From Mustelus asterias (lineage: Eukaryota), in assembly GCF_964213995.1 (NCBI RefSeq), contig NC_135830.1, forward strand, positions 7,006,001 to 7,070,000: a stretch of DNA of 64,000 nucleotides, given 5' to 3'. This document shows, one piece after another, positions 14,681-56,680 of this stretch (positions within the stretch are counted from its first letter, which is position 1; every line of letters begins with the position of its first letter). The notes under the pieces are model-generated. The model searched no databases and was not told the DNA's origin. It saw nothing but the letters and a program-made list of their open reading frames with translations. The position numbers were made by a program, and so were the translations under genes.

Positions 14681-15589
14681 ACGTTTAGCCTGTCTGTCCT
14701 ACATGTGACTCCAGTTCCACAGTGATGAAGCTGACCCTTACGTGCCTCTGAAATTGTCAAAACAGCCATTCAGGTGTTTCAAAGCTGCTGCAGAAAGTCA
14801 AACACAAATAAAACCGACCAGAGGGCAATAATTTCAAAACGGTAGTTCGCAACCGCCTTCTCAGGATGGGCAATAAATGCTGGCTTTGTCAGTGATGCCC
14901 ATATCCAGAGAATGAATAGAACAGTGCAAACTGCTGCGAATTCCGGAAATCTAAAAGTAAAACAACAAAAAAGGCAGGTCAGCGGGCATTAGCAGTGGGT
15001 GAAACAGATTCTTATTTCAGGCCGATGACAGAACGTAAAATCTCATTGATAAAATTCAATATAACAGGACTGTCCTGCCCAGTATCCTGGCCACTCATTC
15101 CTCAACTAAAATCACAAAATGACTGTTCGTTTACCACATCTCGCTTTGTGGGAGCTTGCTGTGCACCAAATACTTGCTGTCTGTCCAATATTACAGCAGT
15201 GAATAACTTCAGCAAAATATATCAGTGAGTTTTAAATGGTTTGGGACGACCTAAGGTCAGGTAAAGCGTTATAAAAATGCAAGGCCTTTCCAAATGTTAT
15301 TATAAAATGCAAGAATTGATATGTTAAAAGCTCTGCGATTAATGCGATTATCGTCACTCCTCTGCCTGATGTTTTAACATGTCTAGTTTTAGTAGATTAA
15401 ATCATCAATGAAATTGACATTCAGTGGAATACCAGCCTTTTCAAACATGTTTTATTTATTCTGACATCAGAACTTTCAGAACAAATTCTTGATTAGAGGG
15501 TATTTTTTTATTTGAATTAAATAGCGTCTGGTCAAATGGGTATTCACGAAGCTTCTATTGATTTTGAACCTGCTGTCAATATACTTTAA

Positions 15590-15800
15590 AGAAACCGCTA
15601 TTTTGAATTGAAACTAATGAATAAATGACGGTTTATCTGGTTTTGCTGCCATGAACATCTCATTGTAACCAGTGAGGTGTTTATGTTAATAAACACAGAA
15701 ATAGAAATCCCAGATTAGATTTATTGATTGACAAAAACACAACAAATATTTCCCCATCAACACAGCACAGAAATAGAGACAAACATGCAAATCAATCATT
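15590..15800. promoter_or_regulatory. Conserved non-coding block, copy 1 (candidate enhancer: octamer, forkhead palindrome, IRF-like motif)
   Basis: ATGCAAAT 15785-15792; GTGTTTAT-N4-ATAAACAC 15677-15696; GAAATAGAAA 15698-15707; visibly better conserved between duplicates than the flanks. Confidence 0.5.
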
Positions 15801-16104
15801 GGATTTCAGTCGTGATTGTTTTTGGACATATTTTTTCATCAGTTATATACGCAAAACAAGCTATGATTATCTATGTTCAAAATTAAGAAAGATTCCCTCT
15901 AATCACAAAATATAAGGACACGGCAAATATATTTGCGGCGATTTAATGTGCTTTATCTCTCTTTGTCTTTCTCCTCTCTGATTCTGTGTCTTGTTTTGTC
16001 TCTCCATGATGGGTCATTGTTTTTACTCAACAACTTCAAGTCAAACTCCAGCTAATGTATTCTCTCAGGCCTATTTTCAGGTCTCTAACTAAATGGATTT
16101 AATT

Positions 16105-27340: not shown

Positions 27341-29156
27341 ATACTGACACACTTGGAATAAAGGACATGCTTCGATTTTTGAAGTAGTAAATCACAAATA
27401 TGCGAATGTAGAACAGCAAATTTTAGGACCAGCTATCGTCCCATCCATCCGTCCACTCTCTGATTTCTGAAGCAAAACATTCAGGCATCCAACTATCGTT
27501 CATCCCTGCATCAACGCAAGTATTCCTTTATTGCTGGGTAGATGGTGGCGTAATATTAATGCCAGTGTACCAGTAATCCAGAAGCCCAGGTCAATGATGT
27601 GGAGACACGAGATTAAATCCGACCCTGGCAGCTGGTGGAATTTGAATTCAATCAATAAATCTGGAATACATACTGACAGCGACCAGGTAAACCTCTCTGA
27701 TTCCCCAATGAAGGAAATCTGCCATCCCTACCTGGTCTCATCAGGATGTGACTGCAGACGGACAGCAATATAACTAACTGGGCAATGCCTTCTGAGATGC
27801 CCTAGCATACCACTCAGTTCAAGAGAAATTAGGGAAAGGGAATAAATGTTGGCCTTTCCAGAGATTCTGACGTCCCATGGAAGAATGAAGTGAAATAAAA
27901 CACAAGCATACATGTTTATCTAGTATAAAATGTATCACCTCTCTGAATCAACTCTCATAATCTGCCGGTATTTTTTCTACATCTATCCATCAATGTTTTG
28001 TTGTGTTGGAGAGATTCATCATTGTTGCTAACAAGGTGCCGGAGAAGCTGAATACTTTCTTTTCCGAAGAAATGGGAAACATTCATAGATGTTTGCAACT
28101 TAAAAATAATTAAATTGCCTCCAGTACTGTTGCTGGGTAGATTTGTTTATAAATAGGCCTCATTGACAATGCTGAGAGTTTGAAGTTGGCTTGCAGCCAA
28201 GTGTTCAGTACTGAGGAAACAGGTTTTTGATTTACCGAACAAACACCCTCAGATGCTTCCTGTAAATATTTTTGGGTATTTGGCAGCAGCCTGGACAGTT
28301 GCCAAATGCTGCGTCGGACAGATTAACGTGAATCTGTAAGGATAACATGGGACTTCGTCAGTTATACAATAAATGTTTTATTCCCAAAAGGAAGGCACAT
28401 TTTAAATGTTTTTTCTTCGAAGCAAATATTTTATATGAATGCACTGTCCATTATGTGATTAAAAAGTATCGGAAACTAGTCAATTGACTTGATGCTATTT
28501 CATTTGTATAGCTTCCAAAGAAATGTCCTTCCAACAATTAAAGCCTCTTTATGACCAACGTATGCTGATGGCCCCAATCCCTCCGTCTCATGAGATCAGT
28601 GTAAAGGCACAAAAATGAAAATAATTAAAACTAAAAGAAAATCATATATCTGCCTTGAACAGCGGGGACTTGGGCATATTCTCAATGTTCTGCACCTCAT
28701 TAAAAACTTATATCTGATGTATAACGTGTTCTGTTGTCCAGCATAATCTGATTTCAATTATTTAACAGTCCCTCTCATAACTGCCAATGAGTGAAGAAAT
28801 GATCAGTTCATAACCTGGTTCAGTGAAAGATAAAGTATTTATTCTTGTGATATTGTGCATTATGCCGCAAAGTCCTGATATCCTGTGTTCCCAATACCAG
28901 CTGCTCGCCAATACAATGATCTGTCATGATTTGGATGCTGAAGGAGAACTTTCCTGATTGCCGTGTTCCGTTCTAATTCATTAGCTTCTTTGTCAAAAGT
29001 CAATGTCAATTTTATGTTTCTCTGTCAACTCAATGCTTAATTATAAGTCAAGAAGTTTTCTTTCACCGTTAATTTTCACAGGGTTAAGGAGCTGTTGGGG
29101 AAATATAAGGTGTAACATTGTATCAGATAAGGAGTTTATTTTGTTAATTTATTAGT

Positions 29157-30458: not shown

Positions 30459-30491
30459 TTTATTTTCATCGGCTTTTAGATATTTTTACAA

Positions 30492-31002
30492 GTGTGGAAT
30501 CGGAGGTTGTGCTGAGTCAGCGAGAGGCAGAAACTGGGCGTCCCTGAAACTCTTTGAGACTGACTGCAAAGCCAACGCGTCCAATATTAGCAGTATCTGG
30601 ATGTTCCGGGTCCGACAGGTCCCTGAACAGTGTTTACAGTGTCTTCTTCAGTACGATAGTCTTGGGTCAACCTACAATTCCTCCCCCCCAGGGATTCAGA
30701 ATCAATTTACTCCGCCCAAATGCACTTCAAACAACGGAAAGAGAAAATGCTGGAAAATCTCAGCAAGTCTGGCAGCACCTGTAAGGAGAGGGAAGAACTG
30801 ACTTTTCGATTCCAGATTACCCTTTGTCAAAACATTCGAAATGTCAGCTATTTTCTCTCCTCACAGATATTGCCAGGCCTGCTGAGATTTCCAGCATTTT
30901 CTCTTTTGGTTTCAATTGCAGAATCCGCAGTAATTTGCTTTTATACTTCAAACGACATCTTCTCTTTGGAAATAACTGAAAACCGAAGATTTCTATCTTT
31001 AC
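30492..31002 (+). pseudogene. IGHV: IgM-type VH pseudogene 1 (no leader, mutated acceptor, stop and frameshifts, insertion, no RSS)
   Basis: VESEVVLSQREAETGRP*NSLRLT/CKANASNISSIWMFRVRQVPEQCLQCLL..PGIQNQFTPPKCTSN [212-bp insert] DIFSLEI..KTED; acceptor reads acaa|gt; stops at the YYC position. Confidence 0.92.
30733..30944. mobile_element. Hairpin-like element (Penelope-type terminal repeats in inverted orientation) inside VH pseudogene 1
   Basis: ACTTCAAAC duplicated at 30724-30732 and 30945-30953; arms aaagagaaaatgctggaaaatctcagca... and ...tgctgagatttccagcattttctcttt. Confidence 0.75.
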
Positions 31003-31694
31003 CCTGTCTGTTCTACACAGACTCCAATTCTCCTATGATGAAAATGACTCCTAACCACGACTGAAATTGCCGGGCAGGCCAGTCAGTTGTATCAAAGATG
31101 CTATGGAAAAACAAATAATAAAATCATCCCGAGGGCAGGTTTCAACAAGGTGGTTCACAACCGCCTTCTCAGCAGGGACAACTAAATGTTGGCTTTGTCA
31201 GTGATGATCACATCCGGAGGATCAATAACAACAGTGTAAAGTGCTGCCGATTCTGGAAATCTAAAACTAAAGCAACACAAATGCTACTCAGCAGATCAGT
31301 ATGCATCAGCAGAGAGAGAACCAGATTCACATTTAAAATCGATGCCGGGATGCAAAATCTCATTGATATAATTCTAAAGAGCAAGGCTGATCTCCCCAAT
31401 ATCCTACCTTAATACTGATTCTTCAAACAAAATCACAAATTTACTGGCAATTTATCACATCTCGGTTTGTGGGAGTTTGCTGCAGTACATTACCTGTTGT
31501 ATTTGCACCATGATAGCAGTGACTAAATTCAGCAAAGGTACATCAGTAAGTTTTAAGATCTTTGGGACTACATGAAGTCGGGTAAAGTGTTGTATAAATG
31601 TAAGCTCTACCAAAATGAAAGTTGTAATACTTTGGAAGTGCTAGAGATTAATGCGAATATATTCATTCCTCTGCCTGATCATAGCAGCATAAAA

Positions 31695-32156
31695 TCATAG
31701 AATCCAGTGCAGTAGGAGGCCATTCGATCCCTCAAGTCTGCAGCTGCTCTCCAGCAGAGCATCCTATCTTCACCCTACCCCGACAACCAGACATATTCAG
31801 CGGCTAATGTCTCTAACCTACACATCGTTGGACACTAAGGGGCAATTTAGAATCGCCAATCCACCTTGGGCCTGGGAATGATGCCCTGCTGGACAGCTAG
31901 TGCAGACTTGATGGACCGAATGGTCTCCTTCTGCACTGTAGGGACTCTGTGATTCTACGTTGCTCATCCTTGGACTCAAAGGAGCAATTTATCATACCAA
32001 TCCACCTAGCCGTACATCCTTGGACTGTGGAAGGAAACCGGAGCATCGGAGGAAACTCACATGGACATGGTCGAATGTGAAAAACCACACAGTCACCCAA
32101 GGTTGGAATCGAACCCGCTTCCCTGTCACTGTGAGGCAGCAATGCTACTTGTGTCA
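31695..32156 (-). mobile_element. Shark SINE(s) on the minus strand
   Basis: SINE body and CR1-like tail pieces; absent from the paralog at ~15370. Confidence 0.75.
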
Positions 32157-32460
32157 CTTAGTGATAACCACACTGGATTTTTTATTCTTCCCTCGTGTGA
32201 GGAATTATGACAGGAATATTTCACGCATCAGTTCTCTTTGTTTAAACTTGTCTAGTTGAAGCAATTTAGATCATCAATCAAATTAACATTCAGTGGAATA
32301 CCAGCCTGTTCACAGATACTTTATTTATTGTGACATCAGAACTTTCAGGACAAATTCTTAAATAGAATGTATTTATTCATTTAATTAAATAGCATCTGGT
32401 GTAATGTATGTTAAAAAAGATTTCTATTCCTTTTGAACCAACTGTTAATATTCTTAAAAT

Positions 32461-32670
32461 AACCGCTATTTTGAGTTGAAACTAATGAATAAATGACGGT
32501 TTATCTGTTTTTGCTGCCATGAACATTTCATTGTAAACAGTGAGGTATTTATGTAAATAAACACAGAAATAGAAATCCCAGATTAGATTGTTGACTGACA
32601 AAAACACAACAAATATTTCCCCACCAACACAGCACAGAAATAAGACAAACATGCAAATCGATCAACGGAT
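32461..32670. promoter_or_regulatory. Conserved non-coding block, copy 2
   Basis: ATGCAAAT 32651-32658; GTAAACA, TAAACA and GAAATAGAAA motifs. Confidence 0.5.
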
Positions 32671-32974
32671 TCCAGAAATGATTGTTTTTATACATTAGTT
32701 ATTCATCAATTATACGAGGAAAAAATCATGACAATATCTATATTCAGAATTAGGAAAGAATCCCTCTGATCCCGAAATATGATAAAACGGCAAATGTGTT
32801 CGTGGAAATTCCCTGTGTTTCATCTCTCTCTCTCTGTCTTTCTCCTTCTGATTCTGTGTCTTGTCTCTTCACGATAGTTCATCGTCTTCCCTCCACAACC
32901 TGAATTCAATGTTGCCCAATGTATTCTCTCAGCCAGAGTAGTAAGGAATGCAACGCAATGAATTGGAATCCATG

Positions 32975-33600
32975 AGGGAGATTTACTCTAAAAGATCTCT
33001 TGAGCATTCTATGATCTTGGGATATTTTATACATTTTCCTCTGTATCTAACCTGTGTTGTACCTCGTAACAAGGATTCGATGTGGCAGTACCAAATAAAT
33101 TTTCCCTGCCCTTGGACTGTTTGACTGGACAGTGTAGAGGAATATTTACTCTGCATCTAAACTCACGTACCTGCCCTTTGAATGTTTGATATTACTTGTA
33201 GAGGGATATTTAATCCGTATCTAATCTCTGCTGTACCTAACCTGAGTGTATTTTATGAGACTGTGCCGAGGGATCTTCCCCCTCTACCGAACACCAATTC
33301 AAACTTGCCTCCCGATTCTCTGAAGGAAAAATGCAGAAGTGGTTTTACCGAGAAGAGAGTCCCTGGTCTGTATGTCTTTATTGTGTTTGAGCAGACTTTG
33401 TAGAGGGAGTTTCACTCTGTTTCTAGACAATCTACCTTTTCCAGGAATGTTTGATTTTGATAGTGAGAGGGAGGTTCACTTTGTATCTAAATCATGCTAT
33501 TCCTGCCTTGGGAGTGTTAAATTTGGCAATGCATGGGGGAACTTAACAGCTAACCCCTTGTTACTCCTGTCCTGTGAATTTTTGATGGGGCAGTAGGCCG
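32975..33600 (+). repeat. Degenerate shark ~60-bp satellite
   Basis: Repeated gagggagtttcactctgtatctaa..gaatgtttga words. Confidence 0.7.
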
Positions 33601-34768
33601 TCTCTCCACATTTCATGGGGGTTGAACAAGTCTCTTTATTAGACAGTAAATTTACCCTGCATCAGCTTCTATTATATAAGGTCATACCTCGGTTTATGTT
33701 GCACTAGACCCTATCTCTACACATATTAAACCAGATGCTTTCTCTAACTATACTAAATTAGACCTTGTCCCTGTTTGTATTATGCATCACCATGTTTCAG
33801 TTTATTTCAAACTAGACGCGGTGTCAGTTTGTATTAATTTAGACCTGTCTGTTTGTATTAAAATAGATGGAGTCTTATTCCTGCACTTGACCTTATCCAC
33901 GTTTATATTGAATTGGACATGGTCTCAGTTTTTACTGCACTGGACAATGCCAGTAATGAGGAAAGTGTTTAGGGGGACACAATTCTCTGCATCCTCCTGA
34001 ACATGGAATGCTATGAGGTCTTGGGCACTGGAAAAGAAGCAGTGTTATCTGAAATCTACTTCTGCTGACTGCATTGAAAATGGATACTAAGACCTGTATA
34101 GCATGCACTGTCAACACAGAACAAAGAACAAGAAAAGTTACTGCAGAGGCACAGGTCCTTCAGCACTGGAAGCCCACACCGACCAAATACTGTCGATCCA
34201 ACACTGCCTGTTTCAGAATCCTGCCAGAGACCACTGTTTTTCATCCAACATAATATCTCTTCTTCTCGAGAACCGCGGAGAAATGCAGACATAATTCAAA
34301 TAGAGGCAAAGTTAAGTGCAGGCATAACACTAACACAGTCCAGTGAAATATGTACAGGGTCAGGATCAAATATTACTTAACCAGAGAGTGTGGCTAGTGC
34401 AATATAAACTGATTTCTAGTCTAGCAGTGTATTAACAGAGACAGACTCTAATTTAACATAAACGGGGTCCTGATCCAGCAAAATAGAAATGGGTTCGTTC
34501 CGAGTGCCATGTGGGGATGGTCAAAGGCCAAATGCTGATCTTTTCAGTGACACCCACATCCCATGAAACAAACATTTCAAAGATATATGACAATGTCGAG
34601 GAAAATAAAACTGAGACAGTGTCTAGTGCGGTTTTACTGCACATAGGAGCTTGTGCATATAAACTGAGACAGAGCCCAGTAATTAATGATACTGGACCTA
34701 AATTTCTTTAGACTGAGACGGAGTCAAGTGCATTAATAATAATTACTAATAGATACAGGACAGTGACA

Positions 34769-35020
34769 GATGTAAACTGAGACAGAGTCCAGTGTATTAG
34801 TAATGATTACTGGTACAGTACCTAGACTGATGTAAACTGAGACAGAGTCCAGTGTATTAGTAATGATTACTGATACAGTTCCTAGACTGATGTAAACTGA
34901 GACAGAGTCCAGTGTATTAGTAATGATTACTGATACAGTTCCTAGACTGATGTAAACTGAGACAGAGCCCAGTTTATTTGTAATAATTACTGGGACAGGG
35001 CCTAGACTGATACACACTGA
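34769..35020 (+). repeat. Near-perfect 60-bp tandem repeat, about 4 units, within the degenerate array 34280-35470
   Basis: tgtaaactgagacagagtccagtgtattagtaatgattactgatacagttcctagactga repeated in register. Confidence 0.95.
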
Positions 35021-35489
35021 GATATGGACAATGCAGCAATTAGGAGGTATTGCAAAATGCAATTATAGCTCAGACGTGACATAGTCTTAAATAAATAAAC
35101 ACATGGACGGGTGCAGCATTAACGTAAACAGGATCGAGTTTATCAAAATCTAATGAACTCTTAGCATAATATCTGTGACAGAACCATGTGTCATGTATGA
35201 AGCAGTTGCTCCAGTTTAGTATGCAGTGGCAAATGTTCTGAGGCAGTAAGAATTGAGACACGGCCTCTTGTCGGATCAGCAGAAGCATGGCTCAGTACAG
35301 CCATAACTTAGAAATTATAATATAAACAGGGCCTGTGTCTCATATACGAACACCTGATATTGAGCCAAGTGCAGGACAAAGCTTAGACATGACCTCCTGG
35401 AATGTGATCCAGGCGCAGCCTACTGTAATATAGACAGACGCAGAAGCTAGCTGAATATAGGCAGAGATATGGTATATTTAAAATTGTTT

Positions 35490-36370
35490 CATGTGATTTT
35501 GATGTCACTGGGAAAGTCAGCTTTTGTTGTCAAACCATGAATTCCTTTGAGAATATGGCGGCAGGCTTTGGGAAGCTGGTGGGTGGGGTGTTCTTCGAGC
35601 CAGCTACTTTCTCCAGAATGACATTGAGCTTTTGAGTGGCACAAGTCAGGCAAGTAGGGAATATTCAATCATCTGTGTCGGCACATATTTGGTGGGCCGA
35701 AGAGCCTGTTCCTGTGCTTGACTGTTCTGTGATATTTGTTCATACTCCAGCCTTTTGCCTTGTAGATGATGGATAGGAGTTTGGAATTCAGGAGGTGCGT
35801 TGTTCACTGCAGAACTCCGAGCGTCTGATCTGCTCCTGTGGCCACATGATTTAAACGTCTGTCTTCGTTCAGATTTTCACGAATTATAATTCCCAGGATG
35901 TTGATAATGGGCGAATTCAGCGATGGGTAATGCCATTTAATGTCATGGGGAGTGGTTTGGAATCTCCCTCATCGGAGACTGTCATTGCCTGCCACTTGTG
36001 GTGCATGAATGTTCCTTGTCATTCATTATCCAAAGACTGAATGTTTTCTAAGTCTTACTGCATATGGGCACAGACTGTGTCAGTAACTGAGGAGTTGCAA
36101 CTGGTGCGGAACTTTGTGCAATCATCAGTGAAAATCCCACTTCTGAACTTTGATGAAGGCTGAAGCTTGGGGCTAGGTCACTACCTGAAGAATTCCTGCA
36201 GCAATGCGTGTGACTGGCATGATTGACCATCAACAACCATCCTCCTTTGTGCTCAGCATGACTCAGGCAGTGGACTCTGTTCCCCCTGATTCCCATTGAC
36301 TGCAGTTTCGCTCGGGCTCCTTGATGCCACAAACGGTCAGACGCTGTGTCCATGTCAAGGGCAGGCACTC
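35490..36370 (-). mobile_element. Decayed non-LTR retrotransposon RT fragment
   Basis: ALDMDTASDRLWHQGARAKL on the minus strand. Confidence 0.75.
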
Positions 36371-37074
36371 TCTATTCACCTTTTTAATTTATGTTTTTAA
36401 ATCTATATTTGGACTCTTTCCAAATCATTTCTGGAATCGAGTGCTCCGTGCGGGACCCAATTTGAGCATCTTGGTGTGTGTGTGTGTTATGTGAATTACA
36501 TCGTGTTTTATACAAATTAATTCCACAATGATCACTTGCATCCTTCCATTTACACTACATGTAGGACACACAATAAACACATCCAATTCAGATTGGCTTC
36601 CTTTACATATGTCACCTTTTCTAATGATTGAGGAGGCCAATTTTTGAAAAGTTAGTTCTGCCACAAGTGCTGCCCATTAAGCTACCATTCGTCATTGTGT
36701 GTTATCGTTTTTGTATCATGAATGGATATTAGGAGCTTTGGTGTAGAGCCAGTTATCACCAAAATCCTGTATTCCTTGCCCTGCTGACGGTGTTGAATGA
36801 CTTCGCGAGATTGGCCGAAGTACGTTAAAGATATGGACACATATGGAACATGGAGAAGTTGTTGGCTGGAGTAAATGTTCCAACACAGTCACTACACTGC
36901 ACATCAGGAACACCCGGTCTGCAAGCAGATGATGTATTTCAAGCGTGACCCCAGCAAAGATCTTACCCGTGATGTTATGACTGAGATATGTTGGTAGTTG
37001 TAATAGTCTCTTCCATCGGTTTACTTTGCAAAAAGTGTGATAAATTTGAATCATGCCTGTCTTATGGAATGATG

Positions 37075-37372
37075 GGTGCCATGGTGGCACAGTGGTTAGC
37101 TCTGTTGCCTCACGGTGCCGGGGCCACTGGTTTGGTTCCGGCTTGGGTCAGTGTCTGTGCGGAGTCTGTACTTTCTCCCCGTTTATGCGTGGATTTCTTC
37201 TGGGTGGTCCAGTTTCCTGCACAGTCCGAAAAGGCATGCTGGTAATGTGTACTGGCCAGGCTAAATTCTCCCTCAGTGTACCCGAACAGAAGCTACAGTG
37301 TGGCGACTCAGGGATTTTACAGTGACTTCATTGCAGTGTTAATGTAAGCCTACTTGTGACATTAATAAATTA
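37075..37372 (+). mobile_element. tRNA-derived shark SINE shared with 50500-50797
   Basis: Same insertion site in both Y-type copies. Confidence 0.85.
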
Positions 37373-37561
37373 ACTACAAACCTTAAATCTTCCAGCAAAT
37401 AAGGAGAATCTCATAAATGTTCAGAAAGATAGTAATTATTTTCACCAATGACCATCCATTCGCAATTTAATAAATGCATTCACTAATTCTCATTCATTCA
37501 CAAAGGTTAGTCTATTTAAAATTACTTGATGGAAGGTGGGCGACTGTCGAGGCTATAATTT

Positions 37562-37985
37562 AATAGAGTCAAAGTTTCGAGTCGGGATGACCCTTTTTTT
37601 TATTTGGGGGAAATTGAAGAGGGTGATGACATTGGGAAATGATGAGGTGGAAAGGGATTAGGATATAGTTAGCGATTGAGATGTTGATTAGGTTAGTTAG
37701 CATGGAGAAGTTGATGATTTTTGGGATCGGTATGTAAATTGATGAAACTTGTGTGTAGCTCGAAATAGTGCATATAATTAAACAGTATCTATTTGAACTA
37801 TTCCCATTTCACAGGAAAGTTATGCAGCTTCTCTGACACCTTGTTAGAAACAATGATGATCTCTCCAACGCATCAGGAATACTCTGCCGAAGCGTCATCC
37901 AGACTCGAAACGTTGGCTCTATTCTGTCTCCACAGATGCTGTCAGACCTGCTGAGATTTTCCAGCATTTTCTGTTTGTTTCCAGT
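37562..37985. mobile_element. Penelope-type inverted-end element, copy A (5' arm truncated)
   Basis: Inverted arms tagagtcaaagtttcgagtcgggatgaccc and gtcatccagactcgaaacgttggctcta; paralog at 51271-51801. Confidence 0.6.
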
Positions 37986-40260
37986 ATTTCCTTCTATACA
38001 ACTTTGCTTTCAATAATTTATTGATATTAACATTTATTGACACCTTTTTGTCACCAAGGATAAAATCTGTCCCAGAATTCAGTTGGAAATTGAATGAATA
38101 CAGACCGAGGATCATGAGTAGCTACCCAGCAGACTCTGCGCTTTAAACTCCTGAATCATAACTGGTGCGATGATTTCCAAAGTAATCATACAAATTAAAC
38201 TACCTGCACCAAATATGATTTTACTGAATCTTTAAATCCCGATTCATTATTACACAGTTTTGGGAAATAATGTAACACTTGTAGTTATCCAGTGAGTTTC
38301 ACAATATATCTGTTGCCACATTATTTATTTTACAGCCTGTGACCTTCATTTATTTGGGTGAGGGCATGGTGAGTGATTTGCTGCACATGTTTCAAATATT
38401 ACAAACCTCCCTCCTCAGTCAAATCATGTTCCCTCTTTCGATCTTGGATATGAATATTCAGCATCAGCAGAGAAATGAACCATCCGTGCTGCAGGAAAAT
38501 CCCCTCTTCTTTTTCGTGAGGATCAGCTTGCTAACTCCCGAGAAACTAGGGTTGGATTTCTCCCAGAACTTCTGGAAGTATTGACGTTATTAGACTGACA
38601 GAAATGGGATAAAGGAGCTGTTTCAATTTATGGACCAGTCAAGTACAAGTATGGGAATGTAGAACAACATCTTCCAGTACCATTTAACAATGCATCTATC
38701 AATCCATTCACTGATTCCTCAATCAAAATATTCAGGCATCCAACTGTCATTCATCCAACTATCATTCATTCAACTGTCATTCATTCCTGCATCAAGACAG
38801 TCATTCATTTATTGTTTGTGCAGATGGTGACGTAATATTAATTTAATTGGCCCAGTGATCCAGAGGCCCAGGACAATGATGTGGGGACAGGGATTTAAAT
38901 CGGAGCATTGCAGCTGGTGGAATTTGAATTCAATTAATAAATATGGAATACATTCTAATGGCCATGCTAAATTGCCCCTTAGTATCCAAAGATGTTCAGA
39001 TTAGGTGGATTGGTCATGGTAAATGTGTGGGGCTATGGGGCATGGGTAGGGGAAAGGGTTTGGCTCAGATACTCTGTCAGAGATTCGGTGCAGACTCGAT
39101 GGGCAATTTTTGAGAGGTTGATTCAACGGCAAGTGTTGCCCATGTAGCTATTAGTTATGGTTGTATATTGTCGTTTTCTGTGTCATGAATGAGACCGAGG
39201 AATTTTTGTTGGAGAGCCTAGTTCCCCCAAATCTTGTAGTCTCTGCTCTGATGCTAGTGTCGAATGTCTTATTTAGATTCAGGAAGGTATGGTTATGATA
39301 CGTATATCTTCCAACACAAACACAACACTGTGCTTCAGGTTAATCCCGGTCTTCAAGCAGATGAGTAACAAAATTGTCATCCTATCAAAGGCCTTTCCCG
39401 TGATGCTATGATTGAGATACAGCTGCAGATGTTGCCGCCTCTTCTGTCGACCTTGTCTTCGGATAGTGTGATGCTTTTGAATGATGAGTCTCCTGTGGAA
39501 CGGAACCTATCTTCTGGCAGAGAAAGAGAAGGTCATAAATGTTCAGAAAGTTGGTATTTATTTTCACCAATTGCCATCCATTCACAAAGTTACACAATTT
39601 TGTTCATAAGTTATCATCCATTCATAAACATTAATCGTTTAAGTTTTAATTTAATGGATACGTGCGTTGCTGGCTCAGTCAGTATTTGTTGCCTATACCT
39701 AATTGCCCTTAGTGAGCTGGTGGTGAGCTACCTTCTTGAATTGCTGCAGAACCGGTGGTGCTGGTACCCACACTGTGCTGTTGCAGAGGGACTTCTAGGA
39801 TTTCGATCCAGCGATAGTGAAGGAAGGACGATATATTTCCAAGTCAGGTATATGACTGACTTGGAGGGGAATTTATAGGTGATATTCCCTGGTAATTGTT
39901 ACCCCTGTCCTTCCAGATGGTAGGTGTCGTGTGGTTGGAAGGTGTTGCGTAAGGAGTTTCGGTGAGTTTCGGAAGTGAAACTTGTAGATGGTACATAATG
40001 CTGCTCTCTGTGGTGGAGGGACTGAGCATTTGCAAATGCTGTGCCAGCCCAGCCGGCTGCTTTGTCCTGAATGGTATGAAGATTCTTGAATACTGTTTGA
40101 GCTGCACTTACTCAAGCAAGTGGAGAGAACCCTTTTACTCTCCTGACTTGTGTCGTGTAGGTGGTGCACAGGTTTGGGGAGTCAGGAGGTGGGTTACTCA
40201 CAGCAGGCTGACCTGATATTCTAGCCGGAGCATTTATATACCTAGTTAATGCAGCGATTA

Positions 40261-41110
40261 TAATGCAGCAGATGGAGTATAACGTTGACAAGTGTGAGGT
40301 TATCCGCTTTGGAAGGAATAATAGTAAAATGGACTATTATTTATATGGTGAAAAACTACAACATGCTACTGTGCAGAGGGACCTGGGGGTCGGTCCTTGT
40401 GCATGAATCGCAAAAACTCAGTTTGCAGGTGCAGCAGGTGATCAAGAAGACAAATGGAACGTTGGCCTTTATTGCGAAGGGGATGGAGTATAAAAGCAGG
40501 GAGGTCTTGCTGAAATTGTACAAGGTACTGGTGAGGCTGCAATTAGAGTACTGTGTGCAATTTTGGTCCCTTTATTTGCGGAAGGATATATTGGCTTTGG
40601 AGGGAGTACAGAGAAGGTTCACCAGGTTGATACCAGAGATGAGGGGGTTAGCTTTTGAGGAGAGATTGTGTAGATTGGGCCTGTACTCGTTGGAGTTTAG
40701 AAGGCTGAGGGGAGATCTTATAGAGACATATAAGATAATGAAGTGGCTAGACAGGGTAGAGGCAGAGAGATTCTTTCCACTTAGAAAGGAAACAAGAACT
40801 AGAGGACACAGTCTCAAAATAAGGGGGAGTCAGTTTAGAACAGAGTTGAGGGGGAACTTCTTTTCTCAGAGGGTAGTGAATCTCTGGAATTCTCTGCCCA
40901 TTGAAGCAGTGGAGGCTACCTCGTTAAATATGTTGAAGTCACAGGTAGATAGATCTCTGATCAATAAGGGAATTAAGGGTTATGGGGAGCGGGCGGGTAA
41001 GTGGAACTAAACCACTATCAGATCAGCCATGGTCTTATTGAATGGCGGGGCAGGGTCGAGGGGCTAGATGGCCTACTCCTGCTCCTATTTCTTATGTTCT
41101 TATGTTCTTA
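40261..41110 (+). mobile_element. Young CR1 LINE 3' fragment
   Basis: ORF 40285-41010 (LEYCVQFWS..RTRGHSLK); (ttatgttc)n tail; empty site at ~23565. Confidence 0.93.
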
Positions 41111-43780
41111 TTAGCCAATGGTAACCCCGCCGATGTTTATAGTGGGTGATTCAGTATCATAATATCATTGAGTGACAAGGGGCAATGGGTCGGTTCTCCC
41201 TTTTTGGAGATGATCATTGCCTGGCGTCAATATTACCAATAACCTTCAATTCACAAAAATAAATTAATATTTCACCAATTATTGTCAGTATTTTATTTGA
41301 TGCAAATATAATTGCAGTTTATGAAACTGCAGATTCAAATGTATTGAGATAACATTGGCCTTTCTGTCACGAAAGAAACAAATCTGCCCCAGAATTCAGC
41401 GGGAAATTGAATTAAATCAGCCAAATAGTAGCAGCTACCCAGCAGCCTCTGCGCTTTATTAACAAGTAATGACCTCATCATCACACAGAAACTCCTGATA
41501 TATAACTGGAGTGTGTGACCATTTTAAAAATGACTGTAGAACTGAAAGTATCTGTATGTAATGTGAATTTATAGACGCTTAAAATCCCGATTCATTTTTA
41601 CAAAGTTCTGGCAAGGAATTTAAAACTTCAAGCTGTCCAGTGAGTTTCACAATATTGTAGTTGCCACATCGTTTATTTTTTAGCGTATTATCTTCACTAA
41701 ATTGGGTGATGATCTGTTGAGTGATTTTGTTGCACTAGGAAGGCCACATGTTCCAAATATTACAATCTTCCCTCATCAACCTAATCATGTTCCCTCTTTC
41801 CATCTTGCATTTGGAGATTCACCATCAGCAGGGGGGGAAATCAGACTACTCTTAGTGACGTTCAATTCATTTGTTCCGCATATCCCTGGGATGGAATTCA
41901 CCCAGAAAATCTGGAAGGATTAAAGGTTGTGGACTGACACAATTGTAATAAAGGACCAGCCTCGATTTTTGAAGTAGTAAAACACAAGTGTGCGTATGTG
42001 GAACAACAAATGTCAGGACCAGCTATCATCACATCCATCAGTCCATTCACTGATTCCTCGATGAAAACATTTAGGCATCCAACTATCGTTCACCCCTGCA
42101 TCAACACAAGCATTTATTTATTTCTTGTGTCGATGGTGGCGTAATATTAGTGCCAGTGGAGCAGTAATCCAGAGGCCCAGGCCAGTGATGTGTGAACACG
42201 AGATTAAATCCGACCATGGCAGCTGGTGGAATTTGATTTCAATCAATAAATCTGGATTCATATTTGCAGCGACCAGATTAACCACTCTGATTCCCCAGTC
42301 AAGGAAATCTGCCATCCCTACTTAGTCTCACCAGGGTGTGACTCCAGACGGACAGCAGTATGCGTAACTGGGCAATGCCTTCCGAAATGTCCTAACACAC
42401 CACTCAGTTCAAAATAAATTAAGCACAGGAAACAAATGTTGGTCTTTCCAGAGACTCCCACGTCCCATGGAAGAAAAAAGTGAAATAAAACACAAGCATA
42501 CATGTTTATGTATTATAAAATGTATCACCTCTCTGAATCAACTCTCACAATCTGCCTGTGTTTATTTTTATCCATCGTTCACGGTATTTTGTTGTGTTGG
42601 AGAGATCATCATTGTTGCTAACAAGGTGCCAGAGAAGCCGGAAACTTTCTTTTCCAAAGAAATGGGAAGCATTCATATAGGTTTACAACTTAAACAATAA
42701 TTAACTTGCCTCCAGTACTGTTGCTGGGCAGATTTGTTTATAAATAGGCCCCATTGACAATGCTAAGAGTTTGAAGTTGGCTTGCAGCCAAGCGCTCAGT
42801 GCTGAGGAAACAGATCTTTGAGTTTCTGAACAAACACCCTCAGATGCTTCCTGTAAATATCTTCGGGTATTTGGCAGCAGGTTGGACTGCTGCCAAATAC
42901 TGCGTGGGACAGATTAACGTGAATCTGTAAGAATAAAATGGGACTTAGCCAGTTATATAATAAATGTTTGATTCCCACAAGAAAGACACGTTTTAAGTGG
43001 TATTCTCAGCAAATATTTTAAATGAATGCACTGTTCATTATGTGATTAAACAGTATCGGAAACTAGTAAATTGGCTAGGTGCTATTTCATTTGTATAACT
43101 TCCAAATAAATGTCGTTCCAACAATTAAATCCACGTTGTGAGCAACTTCATGAAGTGCACGAAAGAGATTTTGATGTCCCCAATCCCTGAGTCCAACGAG
43201 ATCAGTGTAATGGCCCAAAATTAAAATAATTAAAAGTAAAAGAAAGTCATATAACTGCCTTGAACAGCGCGGATTCCTGAAATATTCTCAGTGTTCTACA
43301 CCTCTTTAAAAAGACAACGTCAATTATACGTGATTGGCACCATGTTCTGTTGTGCAGCATAACCTGATTTCGATTATTTAACAGTCCCTCTCATAGCTGC
43401 CAATGAGTGAAGAAATGACCAGTTCATAACCTGGTTCAGTGGAAGATAAAACATTTACTCTTGTGATATTGTGCAAAATGCCGCAAAGTCCTGATATCCT
43501 GTATTCCCACGACGAATGAATGTTAGACAGCGGTGGTCAATAAAATGAGCTGTAATGATTGGGATGCTGAAGGAGAACTTTCCTGATCGCCGTGTTGGTT
43601 CTGATTCACTAATTTCTCTGTCCAAATCGATTTCAATTTTATGTATCTCTGTCAACTCAATTAATTATAAGTCAACCAGGTTTCTTTCACTGTTCATTTT
43701 CACAGGGTTAAGGAGCTATTGGGGAAATATGAGGTGTAACATTGTATCATATGAGGAGTTTCTTTTTTCAATTCATTCAT

Positions 43781-44093
43781 GGACGGCACGGTGGCATAGT
43801 TGTTAGCACTGCTGCCGCACAACGCAAGGGACCCGGATTCAATTCCCGGTTTGGATCTGCGTGGAGTCTCTGTCTGTGTGGAGTCTGCACGTCCTCCAAT
43901 TGTCTGCCTATTTACTCACACGGTCCGAAGATGTGCCGCTTAGGTTGATTGGCGATGATAAATTCTTCCATGATGCCAAGGGAATTAGCAGCGAATATAC
44001 GTGGGGTGATGGGGATAAGGCCTGACTGGGAATGTTGTCGGTGCAGGCCTAATGGGCCAAATGGCCTCCTTCTGCTCCGTAGGGATTCTATGG
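43781..44093 (+). mobile_element. tRNA-derived shark SINE
   Basis: Paralog of 29157-29405. Confidence 0.85.
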
Positions 44094-44829
44094 ACATGGA
44101 TGCCGCTGGATGGTCAGCATTTATTGCCCACTCCTTGTCCGAGGGCAGTTGAGAGCCAACCACATTGCTGTGGCTCTGGAATCACATGTAGGCCAGCCAG
44201 GTAAGGACTGCAGATTTCCTTCTCTAAAGGACATTATTGAAGACAATCGACAATGATGTCATGGTCATAAGTAGATTCCTAAGTCCAGACGTTTTTACTG
44301 AATTTAAATTCCACCATCTGCCGTGGCGGGATTCGAAGCCAGATCCTGAGAACATTAGTTGAGTTTGTGGATTAATTGTATAGCGATAATAACACTAAGC
44401 CATTGCTTCCCTTTTTGCTTATATCCAGTCCCAAATTACACTGATAGCTATCCACACCTGAAATACAATCATTCCAGCATGTAGTTACATAAATCGATAA
44501 TAATTCCTCTCATGAATTATTATTTTGCTGCAATGTGTTAGAGACACAGAATTATTGCAAATCTGACTGACGTATTTACCCTGATAAGATAATGTCACCT
44601 TGTTTATGTCTATTCCCTTGTGAAGGGGTGCAGAAATGAAGGTATTTAATTTACAATGAAGTTGTTTATTTTATATAACAGATAATCAAATGCAATTTCA
44701 CCTCTTGGACTTGCAGAGACATTACAATGGATCTCAATCTTACTGCCTCAGTATTAATCTGTTTCTGGAATGTTCCCGTGTCAGCAATCAATTCACCGGG
44801 AGTAATTCTCGGTATTTTTGATAAATTTT

Positions 44830-45130
44830 ATTATGATTTCATTTGATTTATTATTATCACACATATTAGTACACAGTGAAAGTTATTGTTTCGTGTTCAC
44901 TATATAGACAGAGCATACCGTACACAGGGAAGAAAGGAAGAGAGTATAGAATGTAATGTTACCGTTATAGCTAGGGTGTAGAAAAAGATCAACTTCATGC
45001 GAGGTAGGTCCATTCAAAAGTCTGAATGCAGCAGGAAAGAAACTGTTTTTGACTCGGTTTATAAATGTCCTCAAGCTTTTGCATCATCGCGATGGAAAAA
45101 GGCGAGAGAGTATGTGCGGGGTACGTGGCG
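44830..45130 (-). mobile_element. Rex1/Babar-type LINE 3' end in the intron of VH pseudogene 2
   Basis: ORF 44883-45074 contains RVKNSFFPAAFRLLN. Confidence 0.75.
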
Positions 45131-45165
45131 TTGTTTTTACATGTTTTTCTTTCATATTTTTAAAA

Positions 45166-45313
45166 GTGTCTAATCAGATATTGTGTTGGCTCAGCCAGAG
45201 GCAGAAACCGGGCGTCCCTGAGACTGACCTGGAAAGCCATTGCGTGGCTTTACCCATGGCAGCAACTGGGTGTCTGGGTCAGACAGGTCCCTGGACAGTG
45301 TTTGTAGTATCTT
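45166..45313 (+). pseudogene. IGHV: IgM-type VH pseudogene 2 (5' half only)
   Basis: [16 protein letters not shown], ~10-nt deletion, ...VRQVPGQCL; mutated acceptor (aaaa|gt); cut off by a CR1 3' end at 45314. Confidence 0.9.
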
Positions 45314-45982
45314 AGGAACGTAAGAACTAGGAGCTGAAGTAGGCCAACTGGCGCCTCGATCCTGCTCCGCCATTGAATAAGATCATGGCCTACCTTTTTG
45401 TGGACTCGGCTCCACTTATCAGCCCGTACACCTAACCCTTAATTACTTTACTGTTCAGAAATGTATTTATCCTTGCCTTAAAAACATTCAATGAGGTAGC
45501 CTCCACTGCTTCACTGGGCAGGGAATTCCACAGATTCACAATCCTTTGTGTGAAGAATTTCCTCCTCATCTGAGTGCTAAATCTGCTCCTCCTTATTTTG
45601 AGGCTATGCCCCCTAGTTCTGGTTTCCCCTGCCAGTGGAAACAACTTCCCAGCTTCTATCTTATTAATGTTATATGCTTCTATAAGATTCTCCCGGCACT
45701 CTTCTGAATTCCAATGACTATATGTTCAAAATCTCTGAATTTCTTCATTTCCAGTTATTACATCCCCCTTGTCATCATCTAAAGGACCAATGTTTACTTT
45801 AGCCACTCTTTTTTTTTTGCTTTATATATTTGTAGAAACATTTGATACCTGTTTTTATATTCTAAGCTAGTTTACTTTCATCGTCCATCTTACTTTTCCT
45901 TATAGCTTTGTTCGTGCCTTTCTGTTGACCTTTAAAGATTTCCAAATGCTCTATTTTCCCACTAATCTTTGCCACTTTGTAT
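45314..45982 (-). mobile_element. CR1 LINE 3' end plus a second CR1 fragment replacing the rest of VH pseudogene 2
   Basis: ORF 45432-45644 FPLAGETRTRGHSLKI; the equivalent of ~30650-32400 is missing here. Confidence 0.88.
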
Positions 45983-46047
45983 CTTGTGTAATGAATGTTC
46001 AAAAAGTTTCTATTAATTTTGAATCAACTGTTAATATTCTTAAAATA

Positions 46048-46255
46048 AACGCTATTTTGATTTGAAACAGATCAATAAGTGACGGTTTATGGTTTTGCTG
46101 CCATGAACATTTCATTGTAAACAGTGAGGTGTTTATGTAAATAAACACAGAAATAGAAATCCCAGATTAGATTGTTGACTGACAAAAACACAACAAATAT
46201 TTCCCCACCAACACAGCACAGAAATAGAGACAAACATGCAAATCAATCAACGGAT
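46048..46255. promoter_or_regulatory. Conserved non-coding block, copy 3 (~8.7 kb upstream of the functional leader)
   Basis: GTGTTTAT-gtaa-ATAAACAC 46129-46148; GAAATAGAAA; ATGCAAAT 46236-46243. Confidence 0.55.
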
Positions 46256-46569
46256 TCCAGTAACGATTGTTTTTCAATATTATTGAAAGCTATGATTTTA
46301 AATTACATGAGGAAAAACGTCATGATGATATCTATGTCCAGAATTAGGAAAACATCCCTCTGATCCCGAAATATAATGACACGGCAAATGTATTCATTGA
46401 AATTTCCTGTTTCATCTCTCTGTCTTTCTCCTGTCTGTTTCAGTGTCTGATCTCCCCACAATGGTTCGTCGCCTTCACTCCACAGCATGAAGTCAATGTC
46501 TACCCAATGTGTTCTCTCAGCCAGAGTTATAGACTTCTAAAATAATTTAACTCACTGAATTGGAATCTG

Positions 46570-51801: not shown

Positions 51802-54739
51802 TATTTCATTCTATACAACATACAATTGTAATTTGCTTCGTAGGATGTATTGATATTAACATTTATTGGCATCATGTTGGCCTTTTTGTCGCCAAGGAAT
51901 ATAATCTGTCCCAGAATTCAGTGGGGAATGAAATTAATTCAGACCGTGCATAATGAACAGCGACCCAGCAGCCTCTGTTCTTCATTGACAAGTAATCACC
52001 TCATCATCACACAGAATGTCCTGATACATAGCTAGAGTGTGTGATGATTTTCAAAGTGATGATATAAATGAAACTACCTGTACCTCATGTGAAGTTACTG
52101 AATCTTTAAATCCCGATTCAGTATTACACTGTTTTGGGAAGTAATGTAACAATTGTTATTGTCCAGTGAGTCTCACAATATTTCTGTTGGTACCTTATTT
52201 ACTTTTCACCCTGTTACCTTCACTAATTTAGGTGAGGGCATGTTGAGTGATTTGCTGTACGTCAAAGAACCACATGTTTCAAATATTACAATCCTCCCTC
52301 CTCAACCTAATCATGTTCACTCTTTTTATCTTGGATATGAAGATTCAGCATCAGCAGAGAAATGAACCATCCGAGCGGCAGGAATATCTCGTCCTTCTCT
52401 TCGTGAGGATTAGCTTGCTAACTCCCGATAAACTCGGGATGGATTTCACCCAGAGACTCTGGAAGAGTTGAAGGTATTAGACTGACACAAATGGAATAAA
52501 GGAGCTGATTCAATTTATGAAATAATCAAGCACAAATATGGGAATGTAGAACAGCATTTTTCAATGCCATCTCGCAACACATCCATCAATCCATTCACTG
52601 ATTCCTCAATCAAAATATTCAGGCATCCAACTGTGATTCATCCAACTATCATTCATTCAACTGTCATTCATTCCTGCATCAAGACAGTCATTCATTTATT
52701 GTTTGCGCAGATGGTGACGTAATATTAATTTAATTGGCCCAGTGATCCAGAGACCCAGGACAATGATGGGACAGGGATTTAAATCGGAGCATTGCAGCTG
52801 GTGGAATTTGAATTCAATTAATAAAGATGGAATACATTCTAATGGCGACCATAGAACCCTCTTTGATCCCCCAATGAGGGAAATCTGCCATCGCTACCTG
52901 GACTCACAAGAATGTGACTCCAGACGGACACAAAATGGCTGACTCTTCAGAAGTGGCATAGAAAACCATTCAGTTCAAGGGCATTTGGGACAGGCATAAT
53001 GTGCTCGTCGTTCCACCAACTCAAACATCTCATGGAACGAGATAGGGAAAGAATACACAAACATACATGTTCATGTATTACAACATGTATCGTCTCCCTG
53101 AGTCATCTCTCAGTCTGCCTGTAATTCTTTCGATCCATCCATGACAATATCCTGATGTGCTGGAAAAATCATCATTGTTGCTAACAGGGTGCCAGAGAAG
53201 CTGCATAAATTGTCTTTCTTGAGAGATGGGTAAAATCCATATAGACTTACAACTTAAAACATGAAATTGCCTCCAGTACTGTTGCTGGGTAGATTTATTT
53301 ATAAATAGGGCTCATTGACAATGTGAAGGGTTTGAAGTTGGCTTGCAGCCAAGCGGTCAGTACTGAGGAAGCAGATCTACTGCACAAACACCCCCAGATG
53401 CTTCCTGTCAATAACTTTGAGCATTTGACAGCAGGCTGGATTGCTGCCAAATACTGTGTGGGACAGATTAGCGTGAACCTGAATGGACAAAATGGGATTC
53501 AGCCATTTGAACAGTAAATGTTTCATTCCCACAAGAAAGACACATTTTAAATAGTAATCATTCTAATCAAATATTTTCATTCAATGTCCTGTTCATTATG
53601 TGAGTAAATAGCATCGCAAAACAGTAAAGTGACCAGATGTTTTTTCATTTGTATCACTTCCAAGTAAATGTCATTCCAATAATTAAAGTCTGTTTATTAA
53701 CCACTTCATGAAATGCGAGAGAGATGTTGATGGTTCCAATTCCCCAGTCAATTGAGATCAGAGCAATGGCAAAAATGCATCGAAATAATATTAAAAGAAC
53801 ATCATCAAACTGACATGAACAACAGGGATTCCTGGAATATTCTGAAAGTTTTGCACCCTATTTAAACAGCAGCGTCTCTTGTATCTGATTTACACCGTGT
53901 TCTATTGTACAGTATAATCTGATTTCCATTATTGAAGAGTTCCAATCATAGCTGCCAATGAGCGGAGAAATGATCAGGTCATAACCTGATTCAATGGAAG
54001 ATAAAACATTTATTCTTGTGATATTGTGCAATGTGCAGCAAAGACCTGATATCTTGTGTTCCCAATACCAGAGAATGTTCGACAGCCGGTGGCCAATAGA
54101 GTGAGCTGCAATGATTTGGATGCTGAAGGAGAACTTTAATGATCTCCGTGTCCGTTCATTCATTAACTTCTCTGTCAAAAGTCGATGTTAAATTTATGTT
54201 TCTCTGTCAACTCACTATTTAATTATCAGGAGGGCGGGATTCTCAGTATTTTCAAAGGGCTGTCTTCGAGATTGGGGCAGTTTGACAAATATAAGGAGAA
54301 ACATTGTATTGTGTGAGAGTTTCTTCTCATCTCCAAACCCAAAATGTCCAGTGACAGCCATCCACACAGTAAATAGAATCACTTTGTTCATACTCCGCAT
54401 TCAGTTACAGAAATCGACAACAATTCTTCTGATAAATGATGCTTTATTATTGTGATGTGACAGAGACCCGGAATTGTTGCAACACAGACTGACGGTCTCC
54501 TTATTTTCCCAAAATGTTATTTCATCATTTTTAGATTTGTGTTCTTCTTGGGGGCGTGGTAATAAAAACACCATATTTACAATGGAATTAGTTTTTTAAA
54601 TAAAGAAATGATGAACTGCAATATCACCATCAGAAATAATGGAGACAATACATTGAACATATTCAGCCAAACAAATATCCCGACGCTGATAAAATGTCCA
54701 TTTTAATATTAATCTATTGTAAATCTGGGAGTCCATTCT

Positions 54740-54930
54740 GTTGGGGTGTGGAAGGTGGGACCTGGATCCAGTCGCCGCCTCCAGCAGGGAATCAACAGGC
54801 GGCGCCTGGAAAGCCGCCCCCTTCTGCCGGGTATTTAAATGCCGCTCACTGGGACCGGAATCCAACAGTCCGGGAGCTGGTTTGTTCACTGAGTTCCTGA
54901 CACAACCATTTCCCCCAAATCACCAGAAAG
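54740..54930 (+). promoter_or_regulatory. VH promoter region (GC-rich, TATA-like box, no octamer)
   Basis: GGGTGTGG near 54744, GC box CCGCCCC 54814-54820, TATTTAAA 54832-54839 about 100 nt before the ATG. Confidence 0.65.
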
Positions 54931-54976
54931 ATGAGGTCGGCGATTTCTCTCAGTTTGTTGTTGAGTATCTTATCCG
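54931..54976 (+). CDS. IGHV: Ig heavy-chain leader exon (MRSAISLSLLLSILS-G)
   Basis: ATG, hydrophobic signal peptide, phase-1 GT donor at 54977; 124-nt intron ending ttacag at 55100. Confidence 0.97.
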
Positions 54977-55100: not shown

Positions 55101-55405
55101 GTGTCCAGTCGGAGGTTGTGTTGACTCAGCCAGAGGCAGAGACCGGGCGTCCCGGAGGCTCCCTGACACTGACCTGTAAAACCAGCGGCTTCGATCTTGG
55201 CAGCTACTCCATGTACTGGATCCGACAGGTTCCCGGGCAGGGGCTGGAGTGGTTGCTTTACTACTACTCTTCATCTAGCAACGGCTACGCCCCAGCAATT
55301 AAGGATCGATTTACTGCGTCCAAAGACACTTCACGCAACATCTTCTCTTTGGAAATGACGAGGCTGAAGACCGAAGACACCGCCATCTATTACTGTGCAA
55401 GAGAC
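55101..55405 (+). CDS. IGHV: IgM-type VH exon, open reading frame, germline (unrearranged)
   Basis: [52 protein letters not shown]...[39 protein letters not shown]; both Cys and the Trp are intact; shark IgM framework signature. Confidence 0.98.
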
Positions 55406-55444
55406 CACAGCGAGAGGAACCAGGGTTGGACCCGGACAAGAACA
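55406..55444 (+). other. V recombination signal sequence, 23-nt spacer
   Basis: CACAGCG - 23 nt - ACAAGAACA. Confidence 0.95.
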
Positions 55445-55815: not shown

Positions 55816-55898
55816 AGTTTTTGTGCGAGTGTCTGTCACTGTGATACAGCAGTGGGGGGTCACAGTGCTGAGCACAGCGACATCCTCATACAAAAACC
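55816..55898 (+). other. IGHD: DH1 segment (55844-55860, ATACAGCAGTGGGGGGT) with 12-RSS on the 5' side and 22-RSS on the 3' side
   Basis: AGTTTTTGT-12-CACTGTG | D | CACAGTG-22-ACAAAAACC. Confidence 0.96.
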
Positions 55899-56198: not shown

Positions 56199-56266
56199 AG
56201 TATTTGTCATGCTGTGTCTCACTGTGATAACTGGGTGGCACAGCAGTTACTGTCAATACACAAACC
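56199..56266 (+). other. IGHD: DH2 segment (56227-56238, ATAACTGGGTGG) with 12-RSS on both sides
   Basis: AGTATTTGT-12-CACTGTG | D | CACAGCA-12-ACACAAACC. Confidence 0.95.
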
Positions 56267-56632: not shown

Positions 56633-56680
56633 ACGCCATGGGCTACTGGGGACAAGGGACCATGGTGACGGTGACTGCAG
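56633..56680 (+). CDS. IGHJ: JH segment (AMGYWGQGTMVTVTA)
   Basis: WGQG motif; phase-1 donor G|GTAAG at 56681. Confidence 0.98.

Follow-up and report, generated by a model that had tools for sequence, protein, structure and literature searches.

How dozens of shark immunoglobulin heavy-chain (IgH) miniloci with octamer-less promoters are switched on singly is an open question. Shark IgH genes carry no upstream octamer according to the available part of PMC2435157, where a promoter-enhancer holocomplex was postulated. Literature listings and abstracts describe no shark IgH enhancer, mention of one in the full texts or supplements of papers being possible; the words enhancer, octamer, promoter, noncoding and regulatory have no occurrence in the main text of PMC12227049, nor do enhancer and octamer occur in the accessible texts of PMC5192425 and PMC4279169. 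In this study we analysed a window of 64,000 bases (positions 7006001-7070000 of contig C71, in a genome of 3.68 Gb), in which a first-pass annotation had proposed, from the letters of the sequence, that a block recurring three times upstream of an IgM VH gene might be a B-cell enhancer.

Organization of the window

The window carries one intact V-D-D-J IgM cluster with correct recombination signal sequences (RSS), whose C-mu exons and secretory tail lie just past the window end (Table 1). Upstream of this live cluster are two older duplicates of a unit reaching from the element to mid-V, both with a broken V. Unit 2 (window 30900-45400) is a recombinant, with its 5' half in the clade on the u2/u3 side and its 3' half with unit 1, which points to unequal crossover in the building of the array. 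Long CA/TC-rich low-complexity tracts occupy the J-C intron at window 61500-65700 and past the window end. At 15-35 kb past the window end we also found V segments of the NARTCR, supporting V-delta and TAILV-like types (L066:5503-5769, L067:938-1219, L107), the NARTCR and V-delta family names being presumed from their motifs. The same interleaving of antigen-receptor segments as on C71 is described, in the available portion of PMC12227049, for the elasmobranch antigen receptor complex (AgRC), in which IgM, IgW, IgNAR and NARTCR/TCR-delta segments are interleaved.

Table 1. Positions, in window coordinates, of the conserved elements and of the V, D and J segments
Feature	Position	Strand	Details
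Element copy 1 (distal, u1 type)	15584..15810	+	Forkhead-like pair 15678-15695 (halves at 15678/15689); ISRE-like 15698-15707; TTTCCCC 15749; octamer 15785-15792; ATGTTAAT in place of the central variant octamer
Second block, other copy	28129-28364
Unit 1 dead VH	30473..30989	+	Frameshifts; interrupted at 30736-30944; promoter/leader not alignable
Element copy 2 (middle, u2 type)	32451..32679	+	Forkhead-like pair at 32546/32557; variant octamer 32551; ISRE-like 32566; octamer 32651
Second block, other copy	42720-42955
Unit 2 dead, truncated VH	45155..45298	+	Promoter/leader not alignable
Element copy 3 (V-proximal)	46037..46265	+	Forkhead-like pair and variant octamer 46130-46147 (halves at 46130/46141); ISRE-like 46150; octamer 46236
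Second, weaker conserved block	53281..53508	+	Some 1.4 kb 5' of the VH TATA; TTT[G/A]TTTATAAATAG; CAGATG E-box
TATA-like box TATTTAAA, live VH promoter	54832..54839	+	From sequence; no octamer nearby
Leader exon	54931..54976	+	From sequence; ATG at 54931
VH exon, open frame	55101..55405	+	Followed by 23-bp-spacer RSS at 55406
D1	55844..55860	+	12/22 RSS
D2	56227..56238	+	12/12 RSS
JH	56633..56680	+	23-RSS

Three copies of a conserved block

As had been read at first pass, all three copies carry the canonical octamer ATGCAAAT, the IRF/ISRE-like GAAATAGAAA and an inverted forkhead-like pair, TGTTTAT..ATAAACA, with one mismatch in copy 2 (TATTTAT). Missed at that stage was that the spacer of the forkhead pair is a variant octamer, ATGTAAAT, in copies 2 and 3 (32551 and 46135), at the place where copy 1 has ATGTTAAT. 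The element includes a central quasi-palindrome, its core is AT-rich (66-68%) with AT and CpG content within the range of the flank windows, and no E-box (CANNTG) was read by eye in the core of copy 3. Across 211 columns of 15590-15800, gaps included, the core differs at 16 (u1/u2), 19 (u1/u3) and 12 (u2/u3) positions, where the hand count gave about 14. When each pair of units was aligned and scanned in 200-bp steps of comparison (375, 211 and 369 overlapping windows), the core ranked first every time, with gap-free identities of 0.949 (u1/u2), 0.934 (u1/u3) and 0.964 (u2/u3) against medians of 0.83, 0.77 and 0.84, and with runner-up windows close behind in u1/u2 (0.934) and u2/u3 (0.958).

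The live VH promoter lacks an octamer, as had been stated, none occurs between 47499 and the live V, and the estimated distance is borne out, copy 3 lying 8.7 kb from the leader ATG of the intact cluster. The element has likewise been kept in units with a dead V, copies 1 and 2 standing before the broken VH of units 1 and 2. Octamers number 22 in 410,000 bases of other loci on both strands, or about 1% per 210 bp; a single octamer is weak evidence, and the case rests on conservation.

Linkage of the block to IgM clusters

An exact 22-mer gave 87 matches in the genome, and two longer patterns with up to 3 mismatches gave 136 and 149, reversed controls giving 0; the patterns for JH and VH matched 85 and 123 times genome-wide, with 100 of the 123 VH matches listed. 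Among the 121 distinct listed copies of the element, 113 have V/J on the same strand within 50 kb downstream and none has V/J within 50 kb upstream, 36 and 49 weaker pattern matches lying outside the listed copies. Seven of the 8 copies without nearby V/J are remnants of the IgM upstream unit and the eighth comes from a short contig; four further copies likewise lie in IgM upstream-unit remnants. Copies are solitary or form arrays with two or three members, and most IgM clusters hold the element 3-15 kb before VH, with many insertions in between. The canonical ATGCAAAT is present in 81 of 96 copies and the central ATGTAAAT in 69, with neither in 6. Among the copies listed by this whole-genome search, the block is thus tied to IgM clusters and is not a dispersed repeat. 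The expected pattern of one copy upstream of each cluster stands for most IgM clusters and fails for two that look intact, C158 and C173. At least eight orphan two-unit arrays, made of element and dead V, had no live V-D-J in the stretches examined (L051-L054, L057-L058, L061-L062, L203-L210), and their elements decay faster.

Regions around the most divergent IgM clusters were chosen by J/V position alone, independently of the element. The IgM cluster at C71:1563826 (L074-L076) is intact, combines an IgW-like VH with only one D (V-D-J, RSS 22/12/12/23), and has a frameshifted sister 58 kb upstream; this VH has 48% amino acid identity to the window VH, and a PDB search with it returned only generic antibody V domains. 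The element lies 6.3 kb before the intact cluster, which has both octamers, with 74% identity (E 6e-36) and unalignable flanks; it also lies before the frameshifted sister, which has neither octamer, and 3.3 kb before V in a third divergent cluster, C71:1677446. In a 40-kb comparison with the intact IgW-like-VH cluster, dispersed repeats being masked, the collinear parts are the element, the D-RSS, JH, the C-mu exons/UTRs and a few short low-complexity pieces. Neither VH nor promoter aligns at the DNA level between the window and the intact IgW-like-VH cluster, whose 10-kb J-C intron is likewise without any alignable stretch. By sequence comparison, the element is the only alignable block, other than exons and RSS, between the two most distant IgM families. 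Two octamers of the J-C intron (58054, 60884) were considered as a shared element and rejected, as they are not kept in the distant clusters.

Evolutionary constraint

Linkage of this kind could stem from block duplication alone, so evolutionary rates were tested. With 27 copies placed on a fixed 3'-flank tree, the rate scale of the core is 0.68 compared with 0.98 +/- 0.09 for 18 flank windows (minimum 0.82), in agreement with the earlier claim that the core evolves more slowly than its flanks; the tree scale is 0.20-0.28 for the u1/u2/u3 pairs and 0.77-1.0 for copies in dead or orphan units. When unit 3 served as the reference for 26 partners, only the core held a 100-bp window aligned in 26/26, a retention count biased by the picking of most partners for having the element. 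The divergence ratio of the core in this comparison is 0.52, the lowest outside the promoter, and the core is significantly slower in 18/26 partners, with p>0.05 in 8/26, two of which have almost no other alignable DNA.

The ratio of core to flank changes per site, by parsimony, is 0.34 in single copies (n=8, p 8e-7), 0.32 in u3-type proximal copies (n=6, p 0.021), 0.68 in u2-type copies (n=25), 0.66 in distal copies (n=32, p 0.0085, a mildly biased sample of mostly top BLAST hits to the core) and 0.93 in middle copies (n=7, p 0.43), which are unconstrained. Constraint is strong in V-proximal copies, weaker in distal ones and absent in middle ones. The suggestion that up to three copies serve one V-D-D-J can thus be kept in part, for the mildly constrained distal copy, and has no such backing for the middle copy. 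The core tree keeps the clades of the 3' flank and u1, u2 and u3 do not group in it, so recent conversion within the array is no explanation, and the three window copies have not been homogenised. Within the core, the canonical octamer has 2.25 changes per site compared with a core average of 2.16 (rank 120 of 186, 71 distinct copies), the best-kept parts are TAAATAAAYA and AATATTTCC, and 21% of core 8-mers in unjoined proximal copies are preserved as well as the canonical octamer. Being slower than its flanks and relaxed in dead copies, the block qualifies as a conserved non-coding element under purifying selection.

State of the element and state of the cluster

We tabulated 86 clusters, about 37 of which are germline-joined; a short V-J distance proved to be a germline join in 19/19 such clusters checked (D1D2, VD and DJ joins; L171-L189), and two single-D clusters were counted as unjoined. 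An octamer-intact copy is present in 40/42 unjoined clusters with the element versus 18/25 germline-joined ones (Fisher p 0.011; 0.025 or 0.002 when 3 joined clusters of unknown state are counted either way), and distance from consensus is lower in unjoined proximal copies (25 versus 18 joined, p 0.003), Fisher and rank tests alike overstating independence since the clusters are related by descent. C1053 is one more unjoined case with an octamer-intact copy, giving 41/43 RAG-rearrangeable clusters. Among the same 25 unjoined and 18 joined proximal copies, the canonical octamer is intact in 96% versus 50%, and the mean core 8-mer in 72% versus 57%; germline-joined clusters may simply include more pseudogenes, which would be an alternative reason for the decay of the octamer.

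The element is missing from five unjoined clusters. Of these, C325 and C1012 are without promoter and leader, C420 is without half its V, and C158 and C173, which have an intact-looking V-D-D-J-C with promoter, yielded no copy in stretches of about 44 and 34 kb, their homology being cut 5 and 3 kb before V. No full copy was found at nine joined clusters that are promoterless, truncated or at contig ends, C447 being searched at 6-16 kb upstream only. C325 and C1012 belong, with C1007, C1179 and C91:1128485, to a sub-family with homology from window 55011 that has open V frames but no promoter or leader.

Other isotypes, a second block and other organisms

Searches with the element profile found no copy in the 20 kb preceding 3 IgW V genes, in the 30 kb preceding 3 IgNAR V genes or in about 10 kb preceding 2 TAILV-like V genes, isotype names here resting on our reading of translated V and C exons. 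The presence predicted at IgW and IgNAR clusters was thus not seen at these genes, and the block is not a universal IgH element. Unlike the promoters of IgM and IgW, which lack an octamer, two of three IgNAR promoters (C71 735082 = L193:9426, and 1001262 = L195) have ATGCAAAT about 20 bases before TATA, and the third (L199) has the variant ACGCAAAT at the equivalent place before TATA; no published account of an IgNAR promoter octamer was found in literature listings.

The second conserved block, whose motif can also be given as TTTGTTTATAAATAG, has a tree scale of 0.72, the lowest of 13 windows. It is present in the element-less C158 and C173, and was not found at the IgW-like-VH clusters or at IgW and IgNAR.

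Public sequencing runs labelled as seven other organisms share 17-30% of the core words; as the flanks also align in the six organisms compared, these look like close relatives, which say nothing on deep conservation. None of the runs listed as carrying core words was an RNA run. None of the 40 differences examined (of 253) falls in 46050-46250, which is not support, the runs having been chosen by core words. One relative's contig, from a run picked in the same manner, has 2 differences in 89 core bases versus 11-18% in 7 flank pieces. Runs of two further organisms gave no cover of the core and just 0-3 short pieces aligned anywhere.

Discussion

The block is IgM-specific, constrained, non-coding and not RNA-like; it is linked to IgM, evolves slowly, and has decayed more in germline-joined and orphan copies. 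On the strength of its sequence features and evolution, we consider it probable that the block is a cluster-autonomous B-cell enhancer located 5' of VH. Such an element would supply from afar the octamer input that the IgM promoter is missing: ATGCAAAT and the central ATGTAAAT would be contacted by Oct1/Oct2 together with OCA-B, the flanking inverted pair by a forkhead factor, and the GAAANNGAAA site by an IRF, these factors being candidates named after consensus sites. The factor complex might then loop about 9 kb to the TATA promoter, opening V-D-D-J for RAG before driving transcription, and contact with the octamer-less VH promoter could result in the rare, cluster-autonomous activation of single miniloci. 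An OCA-B orthologue is reported in shark in the available part of PMC13043367, and the variant formed by ATGTAAAT, ATGtAAAT, is described as functional and Oct-binding in the catfish IgH enhancer in that of PMC1800861. The putative origin of the copies before dead V units is tandem duplication, with unequal crossover, of the stretch from element to V; of the three, the proximal copy would be the main working one, the distal copy may add to it, and the middle copy looks neutral.

In mammals, both the intronic enhancer E-mu and the VH promoters carry the canonical ATGCAAAT. The shark block has the canonical octamer in common with E-mu, and a role in accessibility for RAG and in transcription is proposed for both, the available text of PMC2435157 citing work on E-mu and D-J accessibility. 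On the other hand, E-mu belongs to a single translocon locus, in its J-C intron, whereas a shark minilocus has the element in one to three copies that lie kilobases 5' of V, and distant IgM families have no J-C intron block in common. The catfish E-mu-3', as far as the accessible part of PMC1800861 describes it, is likewise a single enhancer for an IgM gene with an octamer-based core including the variant ATGtAAAT; this core, located 3' of C-mu, combines two variant octamers with a mu-E5 E-box, while the shark block, known from sequence, has one canonical and one variant octamer and a forkhead-like inverted pair, has no E-box, and lies 5' of VH. It thus shares the octamer of known IgH octamer enhancers; since it has no E-box and lies neither within the J-C intron nor 3' of C-mu, it is not assigned to the E-mu or E-mu-3' families. 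A V-gene promoter octamer of the IgNAR or mammalian type was also considered and rejected, as the nearest leader is 8.7 kb off and no conserved TATA follows the octamer. The nurse shark IgH holocomplex (Malecek et al. 2008, PMC2435157) likewise explains autonomous and infrequent activation of miniloci; the available text names no enhancer sequence, and infers from the absence of the octamer that IgH factors differ from light-chain factors, an argument that a distal octamer would weaken.

It is unlikely that the block is instead a distal promoter of sterile (germline) RNA directed toward V, which would open the cluster by transcription and not by looping. Its orientation is fixed in all linked copies, as such a promoter would have it, but duplication alone predicts the same; ATGCAAAT, at the 3' edge of the block, is oriented as in heavy-chain promoters, those of IgNAR being an example, but conservation falls right after the octamer with no conserved TATA following, and the spacing to V varies over 3-15 kb with many insertions.

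A boundary, an anchor or a silencer, which might for example keep IgM off in T cells or shield it from TCR-delta/NARTCR cassettes, seems similarly unlikely. While NARTCR and V-delta cassettes do adjoin the clusters, and the AT-rich block (66-68%) is close to where alignable cluster DNA ends on the 5' side, homology in deep clades stopping no more than about 1.3 kb farther upstream, its set of motifs resembles activator sites, and loss of the octamer tracks the lost need for rearrangement.

We rate as lower still the chance that the block has no function, being a mutational cold spot or a gene-conversion tract among about 150 copies that is V-linked via block duplication. Segmental duplication alone does explain linkage, the recombinant unit 2 indicates that inter-unit exchange occurs, and some pairs have no excess conservation; however, the agreement of the core tree with the 3'-flank clades, in which u1, u2 and u3 are ungrouped, speaks against conversion, dead copies evolving at the flank rate (ratio 0.87-1.0) do not allow a cold spot, and the copy at the IgW-like VH is still 74% identical where its flanks are unalignable.

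A transposon fragment, a coding exon or a structured RNA, as about 150 copies and a central quasi-palindrome might suggest, is highly improbable, given that no listed copy lies outside IgM units, an Rfam scan of the window gave 0 matches, a 12-copy alignment folds at -3.96 kcal/mol with 0/20 pairs compensated, the longest stop-free frames are 15-59 aa and inconsistent across copies, and the core has no tandem array. A dispersed repeat and an snRNA gene with an octamer-containing DSE were rejected likewise, the copies being IgM-bound and having no Rfam match or covariation.

If the block is a B-cell enhancer, a wider role is possible, which we put forward tentatively. This 5'-of-V octamer/forkhead/IRF enhancer may be the master cis-element of the IgM minilocus and may be older than the divergence between the two IgM VH families; its rare activation might license one cluster at a time for RAG and so underlie heavy-chain exclusion among some 80 clusters. 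It would represent a third enhancer position beside the mammalian intronic and the teleost 3' ones, the octamer of IgNAR staying in the promoter. The 200-bp candidate would give the enhancer complex postulated in the available part of PMC2435157 a defined, testable sequence, for which the element-less C158 and C173, the octamer-less sister clusters, IgW and IgNAR are natural controls, and it bears on where Ig enhancers were placed before the translocon locus arose.
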